Below, piece after piece: positions 9,682-64,000 of a stretch of DNA of 64,000 bases. The translations under genes were made by a program, and so were the position numbers. The DNA is from Marsupella aquatica (Eukaryota; Plantae; Marchantiophyta). The first letter of the stretch is position 1; every line of letters begins with the position of its first letter. The notes under the pieces are model-generated. The model saw only the letters and a program-made list of their open reading frames with translations. It made no database searches and had not been told where the DNA came from. The stretch lies in NCBI GenBank assembly GCA_973895155.1, contig OZ316898.1, positions 15,158,330 through 15,222,329 on the forward strand, given 5' to 3'.

Positions 9682-11398
9682 TGTCGTATAGCCAAAAGAA
9701 CAAAAAGGAACACTTTTTACATAAAGACTCGGAATACGATCCCTTTAAGAACAGATTTGGAAAGAATTGAATGAATTTATCTCTCTGAGTAATCTAAAGC
9801 TCTCAGCACATAGATTTCTTGTTTCTCACTAAAAGATCAAATAAACAAAACACCAAAGTAAAATAAACTTCTGTCTTATGAGTCAAGAGAGAGTCAATTA
9901 TGGTCTGAAAACTCTGATTAGCTATTGCCACTCCTTCAAAAAGGACTATGGTCTTAGAATAGACATAAAACAAGTCGCATGACTCACTAATTTCTCTCCT
10001 GACTAAATAAAATTGCATGATAAGGAATTTCCAATTTGCTAAACAAGTATTGCTCTGGTTACAAATGTAATGATATGACTTAAGATGCCGGCAACATAGT
10101 TTGACATCAGCGATACGCAATTCCGTCAAACACTAAATCATATTCCATAAACAAAGTAACGGTACTGAATACTCTGAGAACCAAACTTTACTTCTCACAT
10201 ATCAAACAACAACTCTTGAATTAGCTAGCGAATCTTGACCCTTCAAGCAAGCCTAGCAGTGAATTCAATGTAAGTCACAGAAGTTTGTAACTGAATTCAA
10301 GTATCAAGAAATTTCTTGAATTCATAAATTCAAACATAAGTTTTACTTCCATACAAGACTTTTCTTGTTAAAATGGAAGGAGGGAAACTAACAGAAGTCT
10401 GATTGGAATTGTCCCCCCTCTTCCGAATGGAAAAAACATGAGGTTTTATAAGTAAAGGTTCCCTTAACTGAAAAGGCATGACTTTTCAAACCTCATATAT
10501 CTAAAAGACAATCCTAAAAGAAATAAAGAAATACATTGGAGACTTAGTGGACGCTTTGTAGAGCGTCGGTGCTTTCCGGTAAAACTAATAAACAGTGGTG
10601 TTAATCTAATTTTAACTTCTAAACTAAAAGTCGGAATGAGCTGAGACTTTTCTAGAGTACTCTACTACACATAATCTCTATGCTGGTAAAGTTTCAGACT
10701 TCTCTGAGGTCTCTAAGTGCCTCAAATAAATCGGTGAAAGTGGCATGGTGTTATAAAAGTGCGGAAATCAGAAATATTTCTAAGTGTCGGGAAGATAGTG
10801 GACGCTTCAGAAAGCGTCCAAACCCACAAAGGACTTTTGTGGACGCTTCAGAAAGCGTCGGCTAAATTTTGAGGTTTGGTCGCGGCGTCCGTCTTCCGGC
10901 CTTCAGGTGGGACGCTTCAGAAAGCGGCGAAGTCTGTCTTGGCGGACGCTTCAGAAAGCGTCGATTCTGCTTTGTCTTCGAACATGGTTGGACGCTTCAC
11001 AAGGCGTCACTTCTCATGTGGACGCTTCAAAAAGCGTCTCATCGGACTTTGGGGTTAGCGGACGCTTCAGAAAGCGTCTTAAAGCGTCCGGTGTCTGGTT
11101 CGAATAGACATTTCACGAAGCGTCTTCTGTTCCGTGGTATCGGTGAAGGACGGCTCAAAAAGCGTCGTGGTTAAGGGGGTCGCATCTGGTTGGCAGCAAC
11201 CATGGACGCCTCAGCTGTCTTGAGGTTTATTGGCTTTGTAACTGGGGACGCTTCAGAAAGCGTCCTTAGTTAGACTAAGTGAGTTAACCGCCAAATGGAA
11301 AGTAGACGCTTCAGAAAGCGTCGTTTTTGCTCAAAAAGTTTGAAACGATTCAGATTTTTCTCTTATGGTCGTGTTTCAGCAAAAGTCTCCTTTCCACA
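9682..11398 (-). mobile_element. Solo LTR (1717 bp) of another LTR family inserted into the Copia pol
   Basis: Starts TGTCG, ends CCACA, flanked by the 5-bp TSD TACCC (9677-9681 and 11399-11403). Removing it restores the Copia frame QLT-RSHIPAA. Orientation is guessed from a TATA-like motif near 10450. Confidence 0.85.
10549..11322. repeat. ~12 dispersed copies of the hairpin motif GGACGCTTCAGAAAGCGTC inside the solo LTR
   Basis: GACGCTT-caga-AAGCGTC and variants near 10549, 10800, 10841, 10910, 10944, 10990, 11020, 11060, 11147, 11246 and 11304. Confidence 0.9.
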
Positions 11399-45584: not shown

Positions 45585-48500
45585 TGTTACAAACCATATA
45601 CTCCAACAATGTAATGAATCTTATTCATGTGTCCAATATATATACATGAGGTAGTTGAGTTAGATCTTGGTTAGATCTTAACTCGGGTTAAGATATCTAA
45701 TCCTAGTTAGGGTATAACACTCCCCCTTGGGTGTTATAGTTTTTGATGAAATTATAACGACCAATCTAAGTTGCTATCAGTTAGATATCTTCTACCTATG
45801 TTATATTGTGAGATGATGGAGGTGCAGTCTCATTAAAACCTTCCCTACTAACATCATGGAAGGAAAGAGTATTGCCACCTTCCATCTCTTTTGTATGATC
45901 TATTTTGAATGTATGTTAGGTCTAGAATACAATATTGGTTTTATTTGTGTTTTCTATGTTGTTAGGCTCCATGGAGGTTGTTGTCTCCATTGTACTGTAT
46001 TTGAGTTATTGGTGTTCTTGGGGATGTCTTGATCTCCTTTGTGGTAGTATTGATGGTTTGCTTCTTCATAGTAAGTAGTCATTCTTCTTCAATAGTGTTG
46101 TTGTAGAAAAATCCATTCTCCCCCTCAATGTTAGAATCCTGCATCAGTTTCTTAAGACTTCGCATCCCCAAGAGGTGAGTTAGTGTTCTATGAGTAGATG
46201 GGGGTAGAGATTTTGTTAGGATGTCGGCTAGGTTCTTGTCTCCTGAAATCCATTGTATGTCGATGTCTTTTCCTTGTTGTTCATGTGAGAAAAAGAACTT
46301 GGGTGCAATATGTTTTGTGCGTTCACCTTTTATAAATCCTGATTTGATTTGAGTGATGCATGACATATTGTCTTCAAATATAGTTGTAGGCATGGTTAAG
46401 TTTTGTTTACCTGTTTGAATAAGAATATGGTCTATTACTTGCCTTAGCCATAAACATTCTCTAGTAGCCTCATAAAGGGCAATAATTTCTGAATGGTTTG
46501 AAGAAGTGGTTGCAAGTGTTTGCTTAGTACTTCTCCAAGATATTGGTGTTGATCCCATTAAGAATATATATCCTGTTTGAGATCTACCGTCATGTGGATC
46601 AGAAAGGTATCCGGCGTCAACATATCCTTTCAACTTATGGTTATCCTCATTAGGAAAATATAGGCCGAGGTCGGATGTACCATTAAGGTATCTGAAAATC
46701 CGTTTTAGCCCGTTCCAATGTCTTATAGTGGGTTGAGAACTATGTCTCGCCAGTAGGTTGACAGAAAATGCTATGTCTGGTCTTGTTTGATTAGATAAAA
46801 ACATAAGAGCACCGATAGCCGAAAGGTATGGCATATCTGAACCTAATATAGGTTTGAATTCTTCTCTTTTTCTAAACATATCCTTATCCTTATCAAGGGT
46901 ACGGATGTCCATGGGGGATTTAACAGGCTTCAACATATTCATTCTGAATTGTTGTAATGTTTTCTTTGTGTAAGTAGTTTGGTGTAAAAGAATGCCTTTT
47001 TCCAAATGTTCAAATTGGAGTCCAATGCAATAAGAAGTTCTGCCCATGTCTCTCATTTCAAATACGCTTTTTAGTGTTTGCATTGACTCATTCATCATCT
47101 TTTTCGTACCAAGGAGGTTGAGGTCATCAACATATATAGCGATGATTATGAATTCAGGTCCTTCATGCTTTATAAATAAGCAAGGAGCTATTTCAGAATT
47201 CTTATATCCCATGGATATCATTTGATTTTTGAATCTCTGGTACCATGTACGTCCACTCTGTTTGAGTCCGTAAAGGGAACTAAGGACTTGAACTGCATAC
47301 CGGGTCTTTGCTCCGGTTGCCTTATGATCCTTTCTAGGTTCTTGTAATGCAATTGCTTTGGAAGCATTGTGGAGTACCAATTTGTTCATATAGTCAAATG
47401 ATTTTGCACTATTATCATTGTGCATATGTGGATTATGTTTTGAATTTGCATGGAAGTTTACTCTCTCAATGAGTTCAGGCGGGGCTTCCATATAAATCAC
47501 GTTGTCCAGTTTACCATAAAGGTAAGCGGTAACAACATCCATTTGTTGCATTAGCAGTTTGTTGTGTATAGCAAATGCTATCAAATAGCGGTATGTGGTG
47601 ACGTCCATGACAGGTGAGTATGTCAGGGCATAGTCAGTTCCATAAACTTGTGTGTAGCCTTTAGCAACCAGCCTAGCTTTATATCTTAGTATTTCTCCTT
47701 GTGAGTTTCGCTTTTTAACAAATGTCATCCTATATCCCGTGAGGTGTTGGTCTAGGGAAGCTACGGTTATAGGTCCAAAGACTTTTCTAGATATCAAGGA
47801 GTCTAATTCGGAGTTCATGGCCTCTTGCCATTTGCTCCAATCTATTTGTTTTTGTGCTTCGGTCACTGATTTGGGATCTGGTAGGTTGTTAATATCATTT
47901 GCTACATGAGAGGCAAATATGAGATCAGGGTTGATCATCATTCTATCTAGTATGTTACCAGTGGAGTTGTAGTTAATGGCTATCTCTGGTTGGGATGGTG
48001 GTCTCGTATGGTTGGTTGGTGTAGGAGGTCTACGCTTGTTTCTAGGTTGTTTGTCGACTGCTCCTAGTGGTCTCCCTCTTTTGAGTTGTGGGAGTGTGTC
48101 AGAGGATAGTCTCTGATCTTGTATGCGGGATGGTGTATTAGCCGCTGGTATATGGGATTTAGTTACATGTGTAGCATCAGCAAATGAGTCGGGTAAGGAC
48201 TCCATGATCTTGGTTAATTGAAGTATCCTATTGACTTCTAGTTCAGTTTGGTTAGTTCGAGGATCTGGGCAAAGTGCCGGGGAAGCTTGCCATGTGAGTG
48301 TTTTGGTGTATGACTTATGTTTTCCCTCTTGCGTGTTAATGGTTGGGAAAATGTTTTCATAGAAATGGCAATCGCTGAAACGGGCTTTGAATATGTCAGT
48401 GGTTGTAGGTTCCATGTATCGTATGATAGATGTTGAGTCAAATCCTACATAGATGCCTTTCCTCCGTTGTGGTCCCATTTTGGTTCTATGAGGACCTAGT

Positions 48501-51500
48501 ATGGGGATGAGGACTTGGCATCCAAATATTCTTAGGTGTGAGATATTTGGTGGTTGCCCGAAAGCTAGGTGATAAGGTGTGTTGCTGTTAAAGGCTGATG
48601 GTCTATAAAGGAGTAGGGTTGCAGCATGTAATACTGCATGGCCCCATGCTGATGTTGGGAGTGATGATTGCATTAATAGTGGTCTAGCAATCTGTTGTAT
48701 ACGTTTAATAAGTGACTCCGCTAGTCCATTCTGGAAGTGGACATGGGGTACATTATGTTGGGAGTCAATTCCATTTATTGTGCAGAAGTCATCAAAGGTT
48801 CTAGAAGTGAATTCACCAGCTCCATCAGTTCTAAGGGTTCTAATTGGATTTTCAGGGAATTGTGACCTTAGTCTTAAGATGTGTGTAAGGATTCTGGGGA
48901 AGACTAGGTTGCGGGTTGATAATAAGGATACTCTGGACCACTTAGAACTGGCGTCTATCACTACCAAGAAGTATCGAAATGGTCCACTTGGTGGGTCGAT
49001 TGGTCCACATACGTCCGCATGGAGTCTCTCAAAGGAATGCGGGGATATGGTTTTTGGTTTTTGGGATGGAGGGGGTGGTAATCATCTTGCCCTGGGAGCA
49101 GGCAATGCATGGTTTTTGGAATGACCTTGGGTGACAGGTCTTTGGTATTCCTGTTGAGTTGTTGACTATCCTATGGAACATGCTGGTTCCTGGGTGTCCC
49201 AATCTCATGTGCCATGTCTCGGTGATATCTTTGGATTCGACCCCTAGGTTATAACATTGGTTTTGGGTGATGTAGAACCCTGAAGGGTGGGTCGAGATGG
49301 TTTCTCTAATGATTATCCCTCCTGGTGAGTGTGATGTTATTTGCAGTACTTCTTGTAAGTTTTGGATGTTTGTTTGGATATGGTAGTTGTTGGCTCTAAT
49401 ATCTTGGAAACTCAGAAGGTTCCTTCTTGCTTTGGGGGCATATATGGCTGATGGGCATCTAATTATTGTGCCTCCAGGGAGAGTTAAGGTGGCTCTTCCG
49501 TGACCTTCTTCTATTTGGCTTTCTCCGGTTATAGTGATTATTTGTCTTTGGGAAGGGATAATTTCATGGAAATATTTTCTATTTCGGAGGATGGTGTGTG
49601 ATGTACCGCTGTCTATAATGCATACATCTATATCCTCTAGCTCAGGTGGGGGGTCTACCATATAAATTTCTGGTATAATCTCAGGTGATTCCAGGTAAAC
49701 TCCATGGGTTTCAAGTTTTGATCCATCTAAACTTTGTTTGTAGAGTTTCACAAGATGGGCTGGGGCATGGCATACCTTTTTGGTGTGACCTTTTGTACCG
49801 CACCTGAAGCATGTGATTGAGCTGTTTGAGTTGTTTCTTGGCTTCTCTTGGTAGTCGTTGCGGCCTCGTTTCCATGTGGTCCTTCCGGGGAAATTGTTTC
49901 TTCCACGGCCCCTTCCGCGGTTGCTGAATCCTCCTCTGGGTCCTCCTCTGTAGGAGTAGTTCGATCGTCCTCCCTTCATTCCTCTTCCCCTATATGAGCC
50001 TCTCCCCCTGAATTTACTTGTATTTCTATCATAAGGTGTGGTCAAGTTAGCTTCTCTCAGTTTCTCGTTTATAATTAAGTTCGTCTCAGTGGTGGCAGGT
50101 ATTGGGAGTGTACCCGGGGGTCTATCCTTTGCATTTGTCATGAGTAGGATTGAGTTTTGTTCTGCCAAGAGCATGTGTGCTATTAGTGCTGAGTATTTAG
50201 TGAATGCCATGTTTCTATACTGGTTTGAGATTACTAAGTTTGTAGGGTGAAATGTTGCTAGTGTCTTTTCGATTTGTTGTTTATCATTCACTGGTTCACC
50301 GCACATTTGGAGTTCGTTCGAGATGCGGAACATCTCGCTGTTGTATAAGTCTACCATTTTGAAATCTTGCACTCTTAAGGTTACCCATGCTTGTAGCGCA
50401 TTTGGTAAGTTTATAGTTGTTATGTGTTCAAATCTCTCTTTCAATGCATCCCATAGGAGCCTTGGGTTGTATATCGTCTTATATTGATGTTTTAATGGTT
50501 CTATTAAGTGGTGTCTTAGTAGGACTAATGCTTGGGCCTTCTGGTATTGGTCCACCCCAATGTCGGTATGTATTGTTTCTGGGATTCTTTTTGCGGTGAG
50601 GTTAACCTCCACGTCTATTGTCCAATCATTATAGTTCTTCCCGTCAATTCTTAGTGCTGGGAATAATAGTTTCTCCATTGCCATCTTGGGCTAATATGGG
50701 TTCACCTTGTAAATGTATGCAATTAAGGAGGGTTCAATGGAGTTTTGCACTTAGCTATTATTTTGTGGTGGATCAGCTTCGCTTGCTCCTTTCTTTTGGT
50801 ATTCACTATTCTTCAGGTTTGGTCCCGGTATGATTGGATTCTTCCTTCTTAGGTGGGTGGAAAGGAGAATTGGGGGTCGCTGCCCTTGCTTGTACGTTTT
50901 CGGTCTGGGGCTCGCGTTTGCTCTCTTCGCTATGGTGTGCTTGGTCTTTCTCTCTCAGTCCTGCGGTGCTCTATTGCTCAGGTCTTCTTTCGTTCTCTGT
51001 GGATGGTGCTGCTTTTTTTTTTCTTGAACCCAATTCCTTCGGCTCTCTTCAGTGTGTTAATTTGCCTGGGACTCTTCTATGTTCGCGTTTTATCTCTCAG
51101 AGTCTTCTCTGCAATTTTTGTGTATTTCTTTATTCTGCTCTTCTTGTGTGGGATCGATCCGCTTTGACTTCAGTCAGGGTCCCTATACGGGTGGTTTCAA
51201 TTCGGTGTGGGATGGTGTGCCGATGAAGTCCTTATCGATCTTCTGTTTCGTTTCGTCTTGTTTCAACGCTGCGCTGTCTCAAGTGTGGGTCCGAGAGTCA
51301 GTGGCTACAGGCGGCGAAGCGTCGAATTGTGAATTCAGTGGCTACATGCGGCGAGCGTCGAATTGTGTCTGAGTTGTGTCTGGATTGTGTGGTGCTATCT
51401 GCGGAACGGCGCCTCATGGCTTTGTCCGGGGCTTGGTCTTCGTGTTGAGTTGGCGCTATCGTTCCTTCAAGTGTGCTATGCGTCGTCTGCGGGATTTGTC

Positions 51501-51983
51501 TTGAGTTGCTGTGGGTTTCAAGAAGTTCTACTCTTCTGCCGATTTCCTTTCGTTTCAATTCCTTCGGATTAGACTGCGGCTGGCCCTTCGTGTTTCTGTT
51601 TTCGTTCTGTCTCTATGGTCCTACTGTTTGCCTATTGCTGGCTGGCTCACGAGATCTCTTGATGGTGGTCTATCGTTCTCAAGCCATAGACGAACAGTGG
51701 CCCATATCATTCCACTCAAGGTTTCTATCAAGAAATGGCCCTCAAATGTGGCCAAAAGTGCTCATCTTTTGGGAAAAACTCTTCGGATCTCCCCTTATGG
51801 TTTAGCACCTCTTCGTGGAGAAAAAAAATTGCATTCATGCTGATAACGTGTTACAAACCATATACTCCAACAATGTAATGAATCTTATTCATGTGTCCAA
51901 TATATATACATGAGGTAGTTGAGTTAGATCTTGGTTAGATCTTAACTCGGGTTAAGATATCTAATCCTAGTTAGGGTATAACA
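45585..51983 (-). mobile_element. Full-length young Ty1/Copia (Bianca-like) element
   Basis: Apparently identical 135-bp LTRs at 45585-45719 and 51849-51983; TSD ATCCA; PBS 51835-51848; PPT (AAGGGGGAG) 45720-45728. Confidence 0.97.
46079..50684 (-). CDS. Copia gag-pol (Gag-PR-IN-RT-RH) with a single +1 frameshift near 49031
   Basis: ORFs 49029-50684 and 46079-48967 join as ..IPAFL-ERLHADVCGP if one T is removed. Motifs DSGTSH, TDGAGEF, RTKMGPQRR, SHIPAAN, YVDDL, IFEDN and ADILTK. Confidence 0.93.
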
Positions 51984-52305
51984 ATCCAACATATTTTTGT
52001 TTGATTAAGAAACTCAGAAGTGAAAGGAAGCTTTCAACAGTAATTTTTGGCGAAAGCAAATCCAACTAAATTCTAGCGCCACATTCCTTCCATGAAAATG
52101 GCCTGAAATTTTAGCACCATAGTTAGTACAGTATAGTTTGGAAACTTTCAGGTCAACCTGTCTCAGGTTCGGAAAATTAATCCGTGGACCCCCATGTTAT
52201 TTTAGAGACAGTTATCTAGAAAGCCTAGATGGACCTCCAAATCTTAAGAAAAAAATTTCAAAAATGGACAAGTCAATGTTTGACACTTGAAACAATTGTT
52301 AAACT

Positions 52306-52664
52306 TGTCATGCCGAGGGACAATGCCTCTTATGCACATCGGCATGTCCCTCGCCTGCCCGCTAGGTATGTAGTTAGGGCTAGTGTACTACCTGAGTTAG
52401 CGACATGTTCTTGTAGCAAGTCTGGGCCGTTCTTGAAGCAAATGTGCTTGTTAGTGTGACGCCAGGACTTTGCTTGCTTAGGGCATGTCTTTCTTTGTGG
52501 GTTTTTCAGTTCTTCTTGAATCGCTGTTGACAGAGCTCAGATAGTGCTTGTCGGTTCCGTACACGGGATTCACACAGTGATTCGTTAGATGCTCCCGGCC
52601 GATCTTGGCATCCTGCCGATTTTCGATTCGATTTCAGTACAATTGTTTCTCTTACGCCTTTTAT
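52306..52664 (+). repeat. Repeat A1 (359 bp)
   Basis: Matches A2 (60045-60403) with 11 substitutions and no indels. Confidence 0.95.
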
Positions 52665-52676
52665 TCAAGAAGAACT
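52663..52676 (+). promoter_or_regulatory. Putative self-priming PBS
   Basis: ATTCAAGAAGAACT is the exact reverse complement of 52508-52521 (AGTTCTTCTTGAAT) inside A. No TGG-type tRNA PBS follows A1. Confidence 0.75.
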
Positions 52677-53142
52677 CTGTCGCCGGGTTAGCGGTGAAGG
52701 GAAGAAGATCGGAGACGCTGTGCTTCTCAATTACTCGAGACAGTTGACGCTTTTCCGCTGATGCCGGTGCAATTTCTATGGAAAAATGCTGAGCGATGGG
52801 GTGGAAGTTATGATTTTAAGTGTATACACTTAAGTATACACTTAAGTCAAACAAGCCCCCCTCCCTCGTTTTCCTTCACGTTTTTTTTGCCCAGGCTTTT
52901 CTTTTTCGGCCACAACCTGTTTCGCGACTTGCTGTTATCGATTGCCGCATCTACGCCGACTGCACAGGGCGCACCTGTGCTCGCGTTTTTAACAACTCCC
53001 TAGTACGACTGCCTCGGCCACCGCGCGCCCCTTTTCTTTCGCCCTTTTTCGCATTGCCAAACCTCAAAGTTCCTCCCTCCGTTTGTTTTCCTGCCTTTAT
53101 CTCGCAGGCTGTGCGTATAGGGCATTGTGTCTCCCACTGCCA

Positions 53143-53615
53143 GCATTTAATTAAGGAGAGGAGGGGGAGCAAGTACAAGCCGGGAGTCGAGAGGAGAAGG
53201 CACGGAGGCCTATGAAGCATTAAAGAGGAGGGAGGGGGGAGCCGAGTACCAGCCACGGAGGGGAGGGGGAAGCGCAAGGAGGGCACAAAGCCCTATGAGG
53301 AATTAAAAGAGGGGGAGAGAGGGAGTACATACGACTCCCTTCTCAGGAGTCCTACAGGGCACGAAGCCCACTTAGCAGCATTCAAGAGGAGAGGGGGAGT
53401 TGAAGCGAAAGCAGGGCACGAGGCCCTAGGCAGCTCTGAAGCATTTAAGAGGAGGGGGGGGCAGTACATTCGAACTCCCTCACACGGGAGTCTTTTGCCA
53501 GGGCACGAGGCCCAAATTGCATTGAAGGAGAGGAGGGGGGGAGTTCGTAGCCCCTTTTCGGGAGCACATAAGGTGGGGCACGAAGCCCTATGGAGGGCTC
53601 ATGCCATTAAGAGGG
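53143..53615 (+). repeat. Array of six structured units: GCATT.AAG-polypurine / variable spacer / GGGC-ACGA(A/G)-GCCC hairpin
   Basis: Hairpins at 53198, 53281, 53357, 53414, 53501 and 53576; purine tracts start near 53143, 53217, 53300, 53378, 53441 and 53519. Confidence 0.85.
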
Positions 53616-55550
53616 CCCGGTTTCTTTGCCCCCTCGCGACGTCTTTTCTCCTCTTTCCGGCCACCTACGAGCTTGCCTCGGCTATTTGCGGGCCACTTGG
53701 AGGTAGTTTGTTTTGCCAAATTCCCCGAGAGGAAGCAGCTACGACAGCAGGCCACTCATCCTACTCCTACTTCCACTCCCCCACCAGCTAGGAAGGCTCC
53801 TACTACATCAGTTGCTCCTCCTTCCAGTGGCAAAGCATCTAGTGCTAACAAATTGCCCAAGCAGCAACAGAAGCAACCAGCTCAGAAGGAGGCTCACAAC
53901 GCACAGGCAACTCAACTCCAGTCTCTGACTCATGAGGTTGAGTCCCTACGTGCCCAATTTGCCAACATCAAAGGCAAGTCCACTGCCTCTGCTGGTCCTT
54001 CTCAACCGGCTGGTCACGTGCAACCCATCCCTGGCCCAGGCACCACTGACAGTTTAGCACCTCTACCCTGCTCTTTCTATGGCTTGCCATTTGATGCTCA
54101 TATGGGTGAGTGTGTGCTGTCCTCTGCTACACAGCCTGGCCTTGCAGTAGAATTTTCAGATTCATTCTGCCCTTCCTATTTTGCTTACCAGCAGGCCAGT
54201 ACTGCCTCCCGTATTGCTTCCACACGCCGCATTGTACAGGCTGATGGTCTTGCTGCTAGTCCTATGACTAGAGCCAGGGGAGCTCGGGCTGTCATGCCCC
54301 AATCTTTTCAGCCACTCACACTTGCTGAAGAGTGCACCTTGTTGGCGAGGGGGGAGGGAGCTGCAGCTACATCCATTCCACCACTAGGTGTTGCTGACAT
54401 TTCACAGGGAGCTGTTTTTCTTGAGCTGCTTGAGCATTTCACCTCCGGTATGGCACAAAGGATTCTTACCACTCCACTTTTCAGTTGCCATGATTTACAG
54501 CTGGATGCTAGAGTTGTCATCAGAGCGCTCGAGGGTTCACTGCATTCTTCATCAGCCCCTGTGACACCGGTTTTGGAGGTCCAATCTCATGTACATACTG
54601 GACCTTCTTCTTCTCCATCACATGTTTCCACTGGTTTGGCTGCCCCAGTACCGATTGCTGCTGATTGTGTGACCAGAGCTACACTTGATTCTGGTCATGC
54701 TGCTCCATCTTTCCTGGCTATGCTGTTGAGTGGGAAGACCGTGGACACTAACTCCCTTCACAAGGTACCTCATCATTTGCCAAAAGTGGTGCCTAGTGAC
54801 AGGACTTTAGTTTCCACCACCATTGCCATTGTTGACAACAGGAATTCAGCAGTTAAGTTGGAGGGTCACACTCCTCAGGTGGTCATGCTAGACACAGGCG
54901 CTCAACCAGTGATCTTGGGCATTCAGTTTGCCAAGAAGATGGGACTGCTGACTGATCATTTACAGCAATCCAAGTGGCACATTCGGACTGCTAGTGGCAC
55001 TGTGGAGGATGTGCTGGGTGAGAGTTCTACTTTACTCACTCTCACTTTTAATGGAGGTACAGATCAGGAACTGCATTTCCCAGTCAGATGTTTGGTTACC
55101 AATGCCACTACGTATGATGTGCTCATTGGCCAGGAGGCTTTGTTCCCACCAGGTTTTACCATTGACAACTGGCATGAGCATGCATACTACAGAGTCGATT
55201 GGCATACGGATGGCTCACACTTGGGCTACATTCCACTTGATTTGCATGGTGCCCATACTCCTATGGCTCACCACTGTGTGTTGAAAGCAGTGCACACAGC
55301 TACCTATGTTAACCACCCATTGCAGGATTGGATTGAGGAGGATGATGATGAGGTGGCTACTGCACATGCTGCTGCACGTATAGCAGCACTTTCCAGCAAC
55401 GTGGATCATCAACCAGAGGTGGTACAACGGTTCCAAGCAGCCCATGGACCTTTGATGGCTGCATTGCACAAATTTGAGGACCTTGGGTAGCATAATGGAC
55501 AACCAATAGCCCCAATCTTGAGCGCACCAGTTACATGGACTCCTCCTTCA

Positions 55551-56500
55551 GATGGCCTTACATTGCTTGAGCTTTTTGGTGGCATTTCTACAGGCCTGGA
55601 AGCTCTCCTACAGTCTGGCATGGTGGTGAAGTAGTACATCTATGTGGATATTGATCCAGGTGCAAGGCAAGTGGCTGAATCCCGTCTGCTGGAATTTTCA
55701 GAGCGATTTCCTCAGCAATTTCCACACAGTGCATGGACGTCTGCATTTTCTTTCTTTCCTCCAGATATCCAGCTTGTCCAGCACCGGCACTTAACCCTTC
55801 TTGGCTCCCTTGATTTGATCATAGCTGGTTGGGAATGCCAAGGGTTTTCAGCTGCTGGTCACGGTGCTGGACTGCATGATTCTCGTTCTGGCCTTTTCAC
55901 AGCATTGGTTCAGATTCTCACCTGGGCTCAATCCCTTTATCCTGCTGTTGGTTATATCATTGAGAATACTCTATCTTAGTTTGACCAGCGTCCACAGGTC
56001 AAAGAGGATTTTAGTGTGGTCCAGCACTACTTGGGACCACCCCTTCTCATTGATGCAGTGCACTGTGATTCTTATGCACATCGTCTTCGTAACTTTTGGA
56101 CTAACCTTGCACCACCTTCCTTGCTGGAGATGGCTCTTCACCACACATCCAGGGACACTAACCTTACAGTGGACCAGATTTTGGATCCTGACAGTTCTTG
56201 CCAACCAGTTACACGGCAAGAGCCAGCACCTTGGTATCCAGCTAATACCATTGGACAACCCCGTGCTGCTTGGCCTACATTTGTGTCCTTTCCAGGTGCA
56301 CATGCTTTTCAGGGTGATGGTCCTGGGCTGGTTTATCGACATTCTACCGGTACATGGGATGAACCTAGTCCTGAGGAGAGAGAACGGGCTATGGGCTTCC
56401 AACCCGGTACTACAGGTCACACCAAAATCACCAGGCTGGCCAGGAATGCTTTACTTGGCCGGGTAATGGATCTCAATGCTCTCACTTGGCTTCTGGTCAC
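55551..56500 (+). CDS. DNMT3-like C5 cytosine DNA methyltransferase domain within pol (two in-frame stops)
   Basis: I LLELFGGISTG, II YIYVDID, IV DLIIAGWECQGFS, V DSRSGLF, VI YIIENT, VIII AHRLRNFWTNL, IX ERERAMGF, X RNALLGR. Confidence 0.88.
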
Positions 56501-59500
56501 TTGCATCCTTTTTCAGATGTACATTCCTCCAGCATTAGGAGCTCCAGCCTTACCACTCCACAGTGCTGCTGCATGGCATCCAGACCAGGTGCACTTACCT
56601 CTGTCCAACACTCACCACTTCAGTCCAAGTGTTGGGGGGGAGGAGGTCCCTTGTAATGTGGCTGACATTATTTCTGAGTTTCATGGTGTGGACCACTTCA
56701 GATCAGCAGGTACAACAGGCCTTGGAGAGGCCTCATTACCTTATCAGCAGCATGCTAGCAGCTTGGACAGTGGAGAGGCTGGCACTTCTGGCTCTTCAAG
56801 CACGAGTACATCAGGTCCTATTCCTAGTGTTGCCAACTACACATTTATCATGGGCAACCACCTGAGTAAAAGACAGAAGGACCAGCTGCTGAATTTGCTC
56901 CTCAAGCATGAGAATGTGTTTGCTTTCTCTATGAAGGACTTGGGTAAGTGCAAGACTATGCAGTTCTCCATTGAGTTGGCTGATGAAACACCTATCTTCA
57001 GGCGGAGACACCGTTTGAGTAAGCATGAGTGGCAGCTGGTGGATGAGAGGTGCCAAGAGCTCTATGAAGCTAGTCTTATTCAGCCATCTACATCAGATTT
57101 TGCAGCAGCTACAGTGATGCCAGCAAAGAAGGATTCCAGTGGATTGTGGACAGAGAAGTGCATGTGTGGGGACTACAGGCCATTGAACCTGGTCACACCC
57201 CAGGACAGGTACCCCATGCCACGGCCAGAGGAGCTATTTGACAGTATTGGAGACTCAAACATCTTCACTCTTGTGGATCTAAGGCAAGGCTTCAACCAGA
57301 TTTTGCTGCTTGCAAAGGATCGCAAGAAAACAGCTTTCCATGGTAGTAACCAACTATGGGAGTGGTTGGTGATGCCATTTGGCTTGAAGAATGCGCCCAT
57401 ATTCTTTCAAAGAGTCATGGACCAGGTTCTTCAAGGTGCTGAGTTTCTGAAATGCTACATTGATGATGTGTTGGTCCACAGCAAAGGATTTGACCAGCAT
57501 CTACTTGACCTTGAGGAGCTATTCATGAGGCTTAAGAAGGTGAACCTAAAGATACACCCCAAGAAGTGTGAATTTGCTGTCAGATCAGTAGTATACCTTG
57601 GGCATCGCATTCTTCCAAATGGAACCATGGCTCACTGGGCCAAGGTGGTATCCATCTTGGAAATGCCCACTCCTACCGATGTTCACACTTTGAGGAGCTT
57701 TATTGGGTTGTGCAATTACTACCGGATCTACATCAAAGATTTCAGTATCATTGCACACCCATTGTACTCTTTGTTGAAAAAGAATGTGCCTTGGACATGG
57801 AGTACAGATGCTGAGGCAGCATTTGCCACTTTGAAGGAGAAGCTCTCAGAATACCCAGTGCTAAGAAGACCTGATTTCAGCAAGGTCTTTGTGCTACACA
57901 CAGATTGGAGTGCCCTTGGGATTGGTGCCATTCTGGGCCAGCATGATGAGGAAGGTAAAGAGTACGTCATTGCCTATGCATCCAGGAGCAACAATCAGGC
58001 AGAGAGTCATTATTCTTCTTATGAGGGTGAATGCCTTGCTGTTGTGTGGGTTGTCATACATTACAGGCCCTACCTCTATGGGACCAGGTTTGTTCTCTAC
58101 ACCGACCACCAACCCTTGAAGTGGTTGATGACCAACGACAAGCTTACTGGCAAGCTTGCTCGTTGGGCACTCATACTCCAGGAGTATGATTTTGAGGTAA
58201 TTCATAGGCCTGGTGTGACACATCAAAATGCTGACACTATGTCCCGCAGCCCTTTGATTGCCTCTGATGATCCCTCAGATGCACGGCAGGATTTTGACCA
58301 GGTTTCCATCCTGCCTACATTTCATGCATCTACCTATCTTGCTTTGCTGCCATGCTACATTGTTGACCAACCTGTGGTGGACATATGGGAGGACAGCGAC
58401 ACTCTTAGATTTTTGCAGGATGGGGAGTACCCCACCCATGTTACTGCTGCCCAGAGAGACCGAATTCAGCAAAGGTCCAAGCGCTACTTGTGGAAGGGAG
58501 ATCATCTTGTGCGCTGCTTGCCAGACAGGGAAGTGGTGGTTCCACCCATTCATGAGAGGGTTGGCCTTATCCGTAAAGTACATTCTGAGCTTGGTCATTT
58601 TGGTGTTAAGAGGACTTATAGCCTCTTGGTCCCCCATTATCATTGGAGAGGCATGCATGGCCAGGTTCGAGATGTTATTTCCCGGTGTGAGCAGTGTGAT
58701 AGGGTAAGGACTTCTTTCACATCTCGGCAACCCACACTTCATCCACTCCCTATTCAGGGCATGTTTATCGCTGGTCATGTGATTTGGCTGGAGAATTACC
58801 CCTCACATCTCGGGGTAATCTCTACATCATGATCATGATAGAGCATTTCTCCAAGTGGATAGAACTTGTGGCATTGCTGGATAAGACCTCCCGTAGCACC
58901 AGCCAGGCATTCCTACAACAAGTTCTCAGCCGCTTTGGAGCTTGTGCAGAATGTCTCACTGACCAGGGATCAGAGTTCAGAGGAGAGTTCCAGGAGCTGC
59001 TTGATCAGGCCCTCATTGATCATCACCGGACATCATGAGATCACCCACAGGCAGATGGCTTGGCAGAGCGCATGGTTCAGACATGCAAGAAGGGTCTCCG
59101 GAAGATCTGCCTCACCAAAAACAAGGAGGATTGGGACCTGACCTTACCCTACATTGCCATGGGGTATATGATGTCCAGACATGCATCACTGTCTAACTTT
59201 TCTCCCTACTTCTTGTTGTTTGGTCGTCACCCAATTCCACCTTCTGCTATTGCTGCTCACATGCTTCAGGTGGTGGACTTGGATTCAGCTGTGACTTGGT
59301 CTGATGTGATCTCTGAGAGGGCTGCCCTATTCAGGAGGGTTATGCCCATGGCCTTGGAGAATTTGGCCATTGCATAGCACAGGGACACACTGCGTTATGC
59401 ACACACACGAGGGGGCACTTTTCAGCCCAAGGTCAGGAAGTTTGATGTGGGAGATTTTGTGTACTTGCAGCGGCAAGCTAACGACACCCTGGACACCTCT

Positions 59501-59673
59501 ACCAGTCGTACTATTCTTAGGGTTAAAGCTATTCGACCGTCTGGAGTGCTAGAGTTACAAGGGGCAGATGGGCGCACAATTGCTGACAATGCCAAGAACT
59601 GCGCCCCTTGTCATCTGCCTAACCTAGATCCCACCATTGTGACTTCTACTTGGATTCCACCTGTGGACTACCC

Positions 59674-59812
59674 TTGCAAGGTGTGTTTGCGAATTGATGA
59701 TGCTGACCAGATGCTGCTGTGTGACAATTGCAATGAAGGGTACCATCTTTTCTGCCTTCGGCCTGAACTTACCCAGGTGCCAGAAGGGTTATGGTTTTGC
59801 CCTTCTTGTGCT
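59674..59812 (+). CDS. PHD finger at the integrase C-terminus
   Basis: CKVC...MLLCDNC..GYHLFC..P.L..VPEG.WFCPSC (C4HC3). Confidence 0.95.
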
Positions 59813-59859
59813 CCACGTGCTACCTGAATTTTCTTCAGCCCTCCTTTTGGCTATGGTCT

Positions 59860-59866
59860 GGGGGGG
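59860..59866 (+). promoter_or_regulatory. Putative PPT (G7) directly before B1
   Basis: tct-GGGGGGG|ATACAGAGG, about 30 bp after the pol stop. Confidence 0.65.
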
Positions 59867-60579
59867 ATACAGAGGTTTACACTTCCACTACGTACATACC
59901 ACTTCATTTGCTTTTTCTTGACACTTGTGAATGTGATTGGACTTTTTCTATGCATGTTGGTTGCTAGCAGCTTGCACATATGCCTTGCCGGTGACTTGTA
60001 TGTTTTTGATACACTATGGCTACGATACTATATGCCACGACAACTGTCATGCCGAGGGACAGTGCCTCTTATGCACATCGGCATGTCCCTCGCCTGCCCG
60101 CTAGGTATGTAGTTAGGGCTAGTGTACTACCTGAGTTAGCGACATGTTCTTGTAGCAAGTCTGGGCCGTTCTTGAAGCAAATGTGCTTGTTAGTGTGACG
60201 CCAGGACTTTGCTTGCTTAGGGCATGTCTTTCTTTGTTTTCTTTTCAGTTCTTCTTGAATCGCTGTTGACAGAGCTCAAACAGTGCTCGTCAGTTCCGTA
60301 CACGGGATTCACACAGTGATTCGTTAGATGCTCCCGGCCGATCTTGGCATCCTGCCGGTTTTCGATTCGATTTCCGTACAATTGTTTCTCTTACGCCTTT
60401 TATATACAGAGGTTTACACCTCCACTACGTACATACCACTTCATTTGCTTTTTCTTGGCACTTGTGAATGTGATTGGACTTTTTCTATGCATGTTGGTTG
60501 CTAGCAGCTTGCACATATGCCTTGCCGGTGACTTGTATGTTTTTGATACACTATGGCTACGATACTATATGTCACGACA
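59867..60579 (+). repeat. B1 (59867-60042) - AC - A2 (60045-60403) - B2 (60404-60579)
   Basis: B1 and B2 are 176 bp with 3 substitutions. Junctions are CACGACA-AC-TGTCATG and TTTTAT|ATACAG. Confidence 0.95.
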
Positions 60580-62410
60580 AACTTACCAAGACAACCATAA
60601 TTAACATCAATCACAAAACAAGCTGCAATGTGAACTATTGTTTAATGTGTGGGCAGCTTAATTGCCCACTTCAGCAAAACGGTGATCGATTTCCTTCACA
60701 TTATCGAAGGGATACTGGATGCATTCATGTTGCATCGAAAATAATCACTTTTCAATTCCTACATGCAGATAGACAAAGAGAGAGAAGTCATCGGTGTCAT
60801 CAAATCACTAACCTTGCATAATTGTTTAAGACAAAATTTCATGGAAACAAATTTCCAATTGTGGAATTCAGAATGGATAGAAAGTTAGAAAATTTTAGAA
60901 ATTCATGACCAATTTAGTACTTATAAAATCTCCCAATGTCACACTCATTAGAAAGCTAGAGAACATTGGAAACTTATAATCTCCTCATAACTCAACTAAA
61001 TCTATCAATGTTAAGTTCATTAAACAACTAAAGAAATTCTAAAATTCATAATCTCCTTAGTACTCGATAAAATCTATCAATTTTAGGTTTATTCTCATGG
61101 AAGGGGTCAACATTTCAGGGGTTGTACAACAAAATTTCTATTCACATTAGAGATTACAAAATCTCAGGTAAAATCTATTTTTCAAATTGTTTACTCAATT
61201 CTTATCGAATGGTGACAATTCTGAGCTCATCACGACCGTCTCTTCAAGATCTTTCCAACGCCATATTATACGTGAGTTTTCATTATGATTTGACTCAACA
61301 ATGTCAAATCAAAAATTATTGTCAGGAAAATTTTATGTTTCATTCTTTTTATCTTTTTATCTTTTGATTTGCATGTCAATTTTTTACATTCCTTTTTATG
61401 GTATGACGTCCTAGTTTTTACAGCAAAGTTGCCACAAACACGAATGTAGAAGTTAATTTTATCCAAAAACAAGTCCCTTCCTGTTTGTGACATGTCATGA
61501 TGATGTGGCACACTATGGAACCAGGAATTTTGGAAAGGACCTCTAATGGGGGTCCGTAATGAAAAATCTGCACATCCCGGGGAAGAGAGTCTTTTGAAAA
61601 AGCAATAATTAAACGGAATACATTATTGACAGGACATGCTGTTGTGATATCCGATCTGAATGGTACATACCGGTTTTTAAATGCATAGTCTTTAGACTGA
61701 TAAAACAATATACCTTTTATTTTGACAAAATGTGACAATATGGTTTGGGCCAGTTTTCAGCTCCCATTTCAAGCTGAACTTTACTTTAGCGAAAAAGAGC
61801 TACGCTACCTCCATGAGCCTCCCAGTCCCTGTACATTTTGGTCAATCCTTCCCTAAATTGTACATTCCTGCCCAAAAGGAAATCCCATACTCTACTAGTG
61901 CAATTTTTGCTCCATGGAAGAATGATAAAATGCCATGCATTAGAAAATTTAAACCAATGGAATTAGGAGCTTACTGGTAAGTGTTCATGTACACTTATCA
62001 AGATTATGCACTTATATAGTTGTGAGTTATCCAAAAAGTGCAAACTCATGGAGGAAACGTGAAGACGCAACGCCATGCAGTTAGCTAGAATTTGCACTTA
62101 AGTAATGTGCAATTATAGAGGGATGATCGTATTCCAATAAACGACAGCAAGATCCGCTAACCTTCTTGGCAAACAGAGTTTATGTTGTACAGAGCGGTAA
62201 CTTTCTGCCCGTGAATTTACCGAACTACACTATCACGTATCAAACAACCAGAGGGCTTTAATCATCGGCGTAAATCCTGTCAGGATAAGAGGTTACCGGT
62301 GTGTAACCATTTCTACAGGGGCTTGTTATAGTCATAATCTGGTGTCCTAAAACTTTGAGTAGATAACCTCTTTCCGGGCAGGAGTTACGTAAGCTAATGC
62401 AGGGCAGGGT

Positions 62411-63504: not shown

Positions 63505-64000
63505 ATGGCGAGCGCCACCATCTCGGCGACGTCCGTAGCATCCAGTTTCTGTGGGTCGTGCAGAGACATCGGATCAGTCGAGAGCGTCTCCAGCGCGAAG
63601 TCCTTTGGAGCGAGCTTCAATGGCTCGAGAGTGTTCGCAGCTACTAAGATCGCGAAGAAGGCCACTAAGGCAGTGAAGACAGTGAAGTCTGCAGCTAGCA
63701 AAGTCGCGAAGAAGGCCGGCTCTGGGGACCGTCCCTTGTGGTTCCCCGGAGCGAAGGCTCCCTTCTGGTTGGATGGCACTCTCGCTGGTGATTACGGATT
63801 CGACCCATTGGCCTTGGGAAAGCCCCCGGAATACCTGCAGTTTGAGCTCGACAGCTTGAACCAGAATTTGGCCAAGAACCAATTCGGAGATGTCATTGGA
63901 TCCCGCATTGATAAGAAGAGCGAGATCAACCCCACTCCCTTCCAACCCTACAGCGAGGTCTTTGGCTTGCAAAGGTTCAGAGAATGCGAGTTGATTCACG
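63505..64000 (+). CDS. LHCB4: Photosystem II minor antenna CP29 (5' part, runs off the window)
   Basis: Transit peptide, then [49 protein letters not shown]...[21 protein letters not shown]. Confidence 0.97.

Follow-up and report, generated by a model that had tools for sequence, protein, structure and literature searches.

A conserved head-to-tail pair of element ends inside the LTR of a Ty3/gypsy element from Marsupella aquatica, and its likely role as the integrase cut site

The window, which is the whole stretch of 64,000 nucleotides of Marsupella aquatica DNA that we analysed, contains an 8.3-kb Ty3/gypsy element (52306-60579) with the order A1-internal-B1-AC-A2-B2 and with AACT on either flank (52302..52305 and 60580..60583). 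(The features of this element are all on the + strand, except for two junctions to which no strand is assigned.) The copies of repeat A (A1, 52306..52664; A2, 60045..60403) are 359 bp long and have 11 differences, and those of repeat B (B1, 59867..60042; B2, 60404..60579) are 176 bp long and have 3 differences. A1 was delimited by comparing the repeats and by the diverse flanks of related copies; it begins with a TG att half-site. B1 and B2 both close with a CA att half-site, and the end of B2 is also the right end of the element. The pol region spans 53526..59827, and a polypurine tract (PPT) of seven Gs (59860..59866) lies immediately 5' of B1.

In the window copy alone, the phase of the target-site duplication (TSD) is ambiguous, as it could be AACT or a shifted 5-mer. 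We therefore rely on other copies of the same family, which were taken from contigs of public sequencing runs: these start at the position of 60045/52306 and end at 60579-60580, and their flanks are unrelated. Among the loose ends listed, at least 13 and at least 15 contigs with unrelated flanks start at 60045/52306, and the flanks before 52306 are diverse in at least 13 contigs of run X3. Diverse flanks follow 60579/60580 in at least 10, at least 5, and at least 11 contigs of runs X1, X2, and X3. Furthermore, the element is inserted in a host repeat, and contigs from all four runs (4/4) contain uninterrupted copies of this repeat with AACT just once. Together, the start and end points of the family and the single AACT of the empty sites imply that the TSD is 4 bp. 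The host repeat is present in high copy and occupies about 52175-52305 and 60580-61560. It has a sharp start at 52173-52175, its end is possibly near an inverted GGACCCCCAT (around 61545-61560), and it may be a MITE.

The Pfam domains of pol are, in order, an aspartic protease (54852-55142), a C5 cytosine methylase (PF00145; 55764-55922), reverse transcriptase (RT; 57159-57611), RNase H (57798-58187), the integrase zinc finger (Integrase_H2C2; 58545-58712), the integrase core (rve; 58766-59029), and a C-terminal PHD finger (59675-59809). The pol of the window copy is disrupted by five in-frame stops and by one frameshift near 58750-58765. A relative that we call L081 likewise has PF00145 between the protease and RT, and it has the PHD finger too. 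The D, D, and E motifs of the integrase were found in 8 of the 9 relatives checked (the ninth gave no output row), and in these relatives the second D and the E are 34 residues apart. We did not find a chromodomain at the integrase's C-terminus in either the window or L081, where the PHD finger is found instead, and no Pfam gag profile matched the upstream frames of either element. None of the 31 frames that we scanned (18 from the window and 13 from L081) matched a tyrosine recombinase. P0002, a close homologue, has Ty3 Gag-Pol as its best solved relative (E = 1e-94). The named relatives of pol, among the 120 of 325 matches that were listed, are from the alga Closterium and from the liverworts Marchantia and Calypogeia (for the latter, 81% identity across 56% of the query). 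Together with an Lhcb-like gene in the window, these matches point to a host among the green plants that is probably a bryophyte. No relatives were found in the viral contigs that we searched. Another PHD-bearing relative, P0066, has PF05869 in place of the C5 methylase; we take PF05869 to be an adenine-methylase family.

By its enzymes, this is a Ty3/gypsy element: it has the order protease-RT-RNase H-integrase, a Ty3-type RT, and a DDE integrase with a zinc finger. It also has the TG...CA termini, a TSD in the range of 4-6 bp, a primer site that follows the 5' repeat, and a PPT that precedes the 3' repeat. By its structure, it is not a canonical LTR element. A canonical Ty3/gypsy element has two whole direct LTRs with att at the ends of the cDNA, while here the primer site and the PPT bound B+A and not the TG...CA unit, and all 23 related copies with both ends visible have the form A-int-B-A-B or A-int-B.

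What the LTR is can be read from the sites that delimit reverse transcription. The run of seven Gs leads directly into the first base of B1, and this boundary is kept in 52 of 53 related loci. At the other end of the element, the 12 nucleotides that immediately follow A1 (52665..52676) are the exact complement of 52508..52519 within A (12/12, with an exact complement of 14 nt); as a control, a 13-nt match was found at 2 of 9,072 positions. Given the complementarity and the covariation described below, we predict that 52508..52519 is the 5' leader of the RNA and its self-primer and that 52665..52676 is the primer-binding site. An identical 12-nt primer site follows A in contigs of runs X3 (three contigs) and X5 (one contig). 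In a second, related family, the leader and the primer site have changed together at two positions (compensatory changes), and at least 10 of 12 positions pair in 21 of the 24 left ends that were scored (1 of 25 could not be), as compared to scores of 7-9.5 for 120 control 12-mers, one of which scored 11. In the second family, 22 of 23 left ends have a TATAAA 20-40 nt upstream of the leader. Three more distant relatives (L003, L081, and L083) have unrelated leader/primer pairs of 12-16 nt, which are 358, 361, and 444 nt away from where A starts. The pairing looks like the signature of self-priming of the Tf1 type, as that is described in parts of the literature (PMC4600332, PMC6317226).

Because the PPT adjoins B1 and the primer site adjoins A1, the LTR as defined by reverse transcription is B-NN-A, with B as its upstream half and A as its downstream half, and a CA-NN-TG lies within each LTR. 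The linear cDNA would then be [B-NN-A]-internal-[B-NN-A], and its ends would have neither TG nor CA. We also found that the two repeats of the same element share minor states far more often than shuffled pairs do (B, 156 versus 79 across 24 loci; A, 143 versus 62 across 10 loci; none of 1,000 shuffles reached the value for A or for B). The A and B repeats are both regenerated together within each element.

Where B1 meets A2, the ends of the element lie head to tail: CACGACA (60036-60042), then AC (60043-60044), then TGTCATG (60045-60051), for a junction of 16 nt (60036..60051, no strand assigned). The first-pass annotation had reported that the two termini occur internally, 2 bp apart, and that the AC is gone from the outer ends. 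The coordinates confirm this: the left outer end is TGTCATG from 52306, after ...AAACT, the right outer end is CACGACA up to 60579, before AACTT, and the spacer AC is missing at both. Singly, the heptamers are no more frequent than expected by chance (6 versus 5.3 and 18 versus 12.7); the junction is non-random because its two heptamers terminate the long repeats A and B.

Most copies of the window's family have the spacer GC, not AC. Position 60043 is G in 40,760 of 43,630, 7,519 of 8,100, and 2,016 of 2,159 units of depth (93-94%) in 18, 8, and 9 contigs from three runs; the position is not covered in the fourth run. Among 12 of the family's 24 indels that were listed, none is in the spacer. 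To look beyond this family, we used metagenome loci. The best 80 of 274 were confirmed, and 53 unique loci that retain B1 were kept after dropping 7 duplicates, 12 loci without A or B, 3 with a left end only, 2 with a damaged B, and 3 from other families. The internal junction is present in 27 of the 53 (these counts are from short-read metagenome contigs and mainly from one family, the second family mentioned above). The LTR of the second family cannot be aligned to that of the window's family except across the junction, and its spacer is 2 nt long at all 27 unique junctions (AC 13, GC 8, AT 3, GT 2, and AA 1). A 2-nt spacer is also found in distant families, with 48-54% identity to the query in pol: the junction is CACGACA-GT-TGTCACG in L003, the spacer is AT in L074 and GC in L081 and L082, and the junction of L083, CGTGACA-GC-TGTCACG, is a perfect palindrome of 16 bp. 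In all six families that we examined, the junction lies 60-200 nt past the PPT. (L006 and L084-L086 have no usable junction, as the contig stops near the G-run or no fitting motif follows the G-run.) The junction is a real, heritable, and family-wide feature, and the att-like reading of the first-pass annotation is supported, in that the junction behaves like an att site that is inherited.

The first-pass annotation also considered whether the spacer is the same in every copy regardless of the TSD or instead varies with each TSD. The spacer is constant in its length but not in its sequence, and it does not track the TSD. It matches the first two bases of the flank in 4 of 26 copies, as compared to 2.1 by shuffling (P = 0.11), and it has the form R-Y at 26 of 27 junctions but at 8 of 26 flank dinucleotides. 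(Of the 10 complete A-B-A-B relatives, 9 have a 4-bp TSD, which is exact in 7 and has one transition in 2.) As for the likeness between A-AC-T and the AACT of the window copy, most copies of its family read GC, so this is a coincidence. GC is probably the ancestral spacer, with AT and GT as its deamination products, and the excess of AC over GT (13 versus 2, P = 0.007) suggests that AC is inherited too. Because the sequence of the spacer is not fixed, the center of the junction need not be palindromic.

We propose that this conserved head-to-tail pair of ends, which lies inside a gypsy LTR, is where the DDE integrase cuts. We put the probability of this at roughly 80%, given the comparisons of sequences described here. 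The idea that cutting both strands after CA would open the junction into two processed ends was already in the first-pass annotation, and it has a precedent in the CA-AT-TG of a foamy virus, at least in vitro and as far as the available text goes (PMC1180852). By analogy, two CA-3' ends with a 2-nt 5' overhang would have the shape of processed retroviral ends. If both strands are nicked 3' of CA, the spacer is lost at the outer ends. The junction at 60036..60051 would be the downstream copy, which is left uncut.

In contrast to the junction, the join between A2 and B2 (60403..60404, no strand assigned) is variable. This is where the primer-defined and PPT-defined ends of the cDNA meet. The join is exact in the window copy; the 26 joins from the second family, which we assigned to classes by eye, comprise 10 exact joins, 1 with a substitution, and 15 with indels. 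Of the 15, 4 have lost an AT microhomology, 3 have lost one base, 5 have gained one base (A, A, T, C, and G), and 3 are trimmed further. Indels are far more common at the join (15/26) than at the att junction (0/27, P = 1e-6) or at the boundary of the PPT and B1 (1/53, P = 2e-8). In L082, B2 lacks its first two bases, which are present in B1 after its G-run. These patterns suggest that A2/B2, and not the att junction, is remade in each round. Join indels are also scattered across the tree of the copies, which is suggestive only, as the tree is nearly star-like and weakly resolved.

At one locus, represented by three overlapping contigs (L065, L066, and L069) that are 99.7-100% alike, the element has an internal inversion and lies within a TSD with one mismatch. 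One of the inversion's breakpoints coincides exactly with the end of A2, and the other is about 15 nt into B2. This single case is the outcome that would be expected if two free ends were captured by an internal break. The inverted copy (L066:2234-6069 and L069:7390-15058) has also lost 647 bp at the internal break.

All of the evidence that bears on the route of integration is drawn from integrated copies. We propose the following cycle. The RNA would start inside A1 and prime itself as Tf1 does, and reverse transcription would yield a linear cDNA, [B-NN-A]-internal-[B-NN-A], with outer ends that have no TG or CA. Such ends would be unusable, so the integrase must open an internal junction. 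It would nick the upstream junction 3' of CA on both strands, and the resulting pair of CA-3' ends, each with a 2-nt 5' overhang, would be joined to the target 4 bp apart. The free outer ends of the cDNA would be joined to each other by imprecise end joining, either before insertion (forming a 2-LTR circle) or after insertion (as the repair of a chromosomal break). The product, A-internal-B-NN-A/B, would be a circular permutation of the 2-LTR form, and the surviving downstream junction would template both att half-sites for the next round. The first-pass annotation had instead viewed the junction as the point where a circle closes. Our data do not agree: reverse transcription copies the junction as an inner part of the LTR, and the ends of the cDNA meet at 60403/60404. 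A circular intermediate is nevertheless possible in this lineage.

If a circle had two equivalent sites, it should be opened at one or the other, which would sometimes give the mirror form, A-B-NN-A-internal-B. We found the mirror form at 0 of 26 left ends (10 versus 0, P = 0.002), so our model must assume a preference for the upstream site. This preference might possibly arise because the upstream LTR is made double-stranded much earlier than the downstream one. Three contigs (L003, L081, and L083), in which B-NN-A is followed by the primer site, were not counted as mirror forms or as real circles: L081 has a terminal overlap of 127 nt, and contigs like it are probably collapsed repeat cycles.

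About half of the related loci (26/53) have 3' ends that stop at B1, without A2-B2. Of the 13 such A-int-B copies with both ends visible, 9 keep a 4-bp TSD within one mismatch. In the window's family, one contig of 373 nt has the PPT and B and then other sequence. A-int-B copies could arise from 1-LTR circles, from annealing repair at insertion, or from later recombination between B1 and B2, and they could partly reflect the collapse of repeats during assembly. (For a fly element, most of the products are circles, according to the available text of 10.1101/2022.09.25.509424.) The terminal branches of A-int-B and A-B-A-B copies have similar lengths (medians of 0.073 and 0.062, P = 0.45, on a star-like tree). 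Exact TSDs were found in 2 of 13 A-int-B copies and in 7 of 10 A-B-A-B copies (P = 0.013), so the TSDs of A-int-B copies are more decayed, which leans towards later recombination between B1 and B2. At four ends that terminate with B1 (L007:1994, L020:1885, L041:13002, and L078:13011), the next two bases are GC, the likely ancestral spacer (4/26, versus 0/26 at the right ends of A-B-A-B copies). Two of the four have a visible left end, with no clean TSD, and these ends were possibly joined by repair rather than by the integrase. We also observed a solo A/B unit with TG...CA ends and the flanks AAGT/AAAT (L038:6060-6526, - strand), next to an end of the A-int-B type.

The repeats could also be explained if the element behaved like PAT or Ngaro. 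That is, all of A1...B2 would be transcribed and copied, B-NN-A would be just the template for the ends or for the closure of a circle, and the A2/B2 join would be inherited. The order of the repeats does match that of PAT, Ngaro, and VIPER (PMC6681497; Fig. 4 legend of PMC5890265), the single permutation that we see would be accounted for, and 10 of the 26 joins are exact. However, the PPT at B1 and the primer site after A1 indicate ordinary LTR-type synthesis with B+A as the LTR. The indels at the join are scattered, albeit over a weakly resolved tree, and a breakpoint of the inversion locus falls at the join. Furthermore, PAT and Ngaro elements do not share the 4-bp TSD and the DDE integrase, and we did not find their tyrosine recombinase in the 31 frames scanned. 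We consider this explanation to be improbable.

A different concern is how the join is made. If RT jumped from the end of A to the start of B, host end joining would not be needed, although the integrase would still use the inner site. The one-base additions (5 copies) and the losses of the AT microhomology (4 copies) fit such jumps as well as they fit end joining, and the asymmetry between the upstream and downstream sites could be built in. In contrast, host repair is the better fit for the larger trims (L017, L070, and L073) and for the inversion locus, at which an internal break has been joined to both ends, and we give template jumping a little less credence than the PAT-like scheme. Finally, that the junction is the scar of a tandem insertion, or a one-off rearrangement, in an ordinary TG...CA element, with the spacer as a remnant of the target, may be suggested by the AACT of the window copy and by the likeness of A2+B2 to a TG...CA LTR, but we reject it as very improbable given the GC majority in the window's own family, the constant length of the spacer, its R-Y form and its independence of the flank, the placement of the junction 60-200 nt past the PPT in all six families examined, and the expectation that an ordinary element would have its PPT abutting A and its primer site after B.

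Returning to internal cleavage by the integrase, the A-B-A-B layout itself was already known from a methylase-bearing gypsy element, KnitGypsy-Dnmt3 of Klebsormidium nitens (de Mendoza et al. 2018, PMC5890265, the one paper with this name in the literature searched), and it is the proposed integration route that lies outside the textbook cycle. A figure legend describes the repeats of KnitGypsy-Dnmt3 as "same as that of a DIRS retrotransposon" (PMC5890265). Like the element in the window, it has a gypsy pol with an in-frame C5 methylase and A-coding-B-A-B repeats (PMC5890265). Comparing the descriptions, the two are very likely of the same lineage; no named Klebsormidium sequence is among the 120 of 325 pol matches listed. 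The available text of PMC5890265 does not mention an att junction, a spacer, a TSD, the positions of the PPT and the primer site, heterogeneity at the join, or a model for integration. Gypsy-7a_cRei, a PHD-bearing element of Chlamydomonas, has near-whole LTRs, with the left one lacking 8 bp (PMC9940879, as far as the available text goes), and the available text of 10.64898/2026.05.21.726589 does not discuss the structure of the repeats. In the literature that we searched, in which subscription journals, Repbase Reports, and book chapters are thinly covered, we found no account of an att site inside a gypsy LTR or of such a route.

The closest enzymatic precedents are retroviral. The integrase of the foamy virus PFV cuts the palindromic CA-AT-TG of the 2-LTR junction on both strands in vitro (Delelis et al. 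2005, PMC1180852), and the 2-LTR circles of HIV-1 are a reserve substrate that is reportedly linearised and integrated (PMC4372172). From the portions of these papers available, the likeness lies in the retroviral-type integrase, the CA-NN-TG junction, the cutting of both strands, and the loss of two bases. In those viruses, the att junction forms from ligated ends of the cDNA and the provirus has two whole LTRs; in the element in the window, the LTR itself contains the template of the junction, att is absent from the ligated ends, and the integrated copy has a permuted order. The elements PAT, Ngaro, VIPER, and TATE share the A1-internal-B1-A2-B2 order and an internal junction that re-creates the termini, going by the part of PMC6681497 that is available, and they have a tyrosine recombinase where the window element has a DDE integrase, a 4-bp TSD, TG...CA ends, a PPT, and a Ty3-type RT. 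Tf1/sushi elements and Tcn1 share the Ty3-type RT, the RNase H, and the integrase, and their primer site is complementary to a leader within the LTR, as is the predicted primer site here, but their LTRs are both whole and their att sites are at the ends of the cDNA, and it is the window's lineage that ends in a PHD finger (available text of PMC4600332 and PMC6317226).

The first-pass annotation had also likened the junction to the circle junctions of the IS3 family. In IS3 and IS911, the circle junction has abutted ends and a short spacer and is opened by a DDE enzyme. The spacer of IS3 is captured DNA from the flank of the donor, and the junction is made anew by the transposase in each round. 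The likeness is a loose one because the spacer here is encoded by the element and inherited, and RT copies it.

The prevailing view is that integrases of the retroviral type work on the termini of linear cDNA, and the standing of circles as true precursors has been debated for decades (PMC1180852 and PMC4372172, in the text available). If our proposal is correct, this lineage is a natural system in which that question becomes testable, and it offers an integrase that may accept donors, circular or linear, in which the site is short and internal. The proposal also accounts for the DIRS-like repeats that were noted in KnitGypsy-Dnmt3, and it suggests that split direct repeats can arise from the ordinary LTR cycle. 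Software that finds LTR elements by requiring two TG...CA LTRs (criteria as in the available text of PMC6317226) would miss the whole group. More tentatively, and at somewhat less than even odds, a gypsy lineage of green algae and early land plants moved att into its LTR, and circles are its normal route of integration, with 2-LTR circles, opened at one inner site, giving the fertile A-int-B-A-B form and 1-LTR circles giving the common A-int-B. If this is true, then circular cDNA, which is a dead end elsewhere, would be the obligate substrate of a retroviral-type integrase in a natural retroelement, and the lineage would have converged on the layout of tyrosine-recombinase elements.

We also noticed several incidental features. 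L081-L086 are eukaryotic retroelements in prokaryotic genome bins (a cyanobacterium, Mollicutes, Halanaerobiaceae, and Minisyncoccia), which is probably due to contamination. In the window, an ordinary Ty1/copia element (45585-51983, - strand) lies about 320 bp upstream of the gypsy element; its LTRs are short (about 135 bp) and 99% alike, and its 5-bp TSD is ATCCA. A 27-nt unit that is based on the near-palindrome GACGCTTCAGAAAGCGTC occurs in nine dispersed copies at 10801-11331 (family D6). At the right edge of the window (63505-64000, + strand) is the start of a gene for a chlorophyll a/b-binding protein, presumably CP29/Lhcb4-like, with a weak Pfam match that is below the cut-off.
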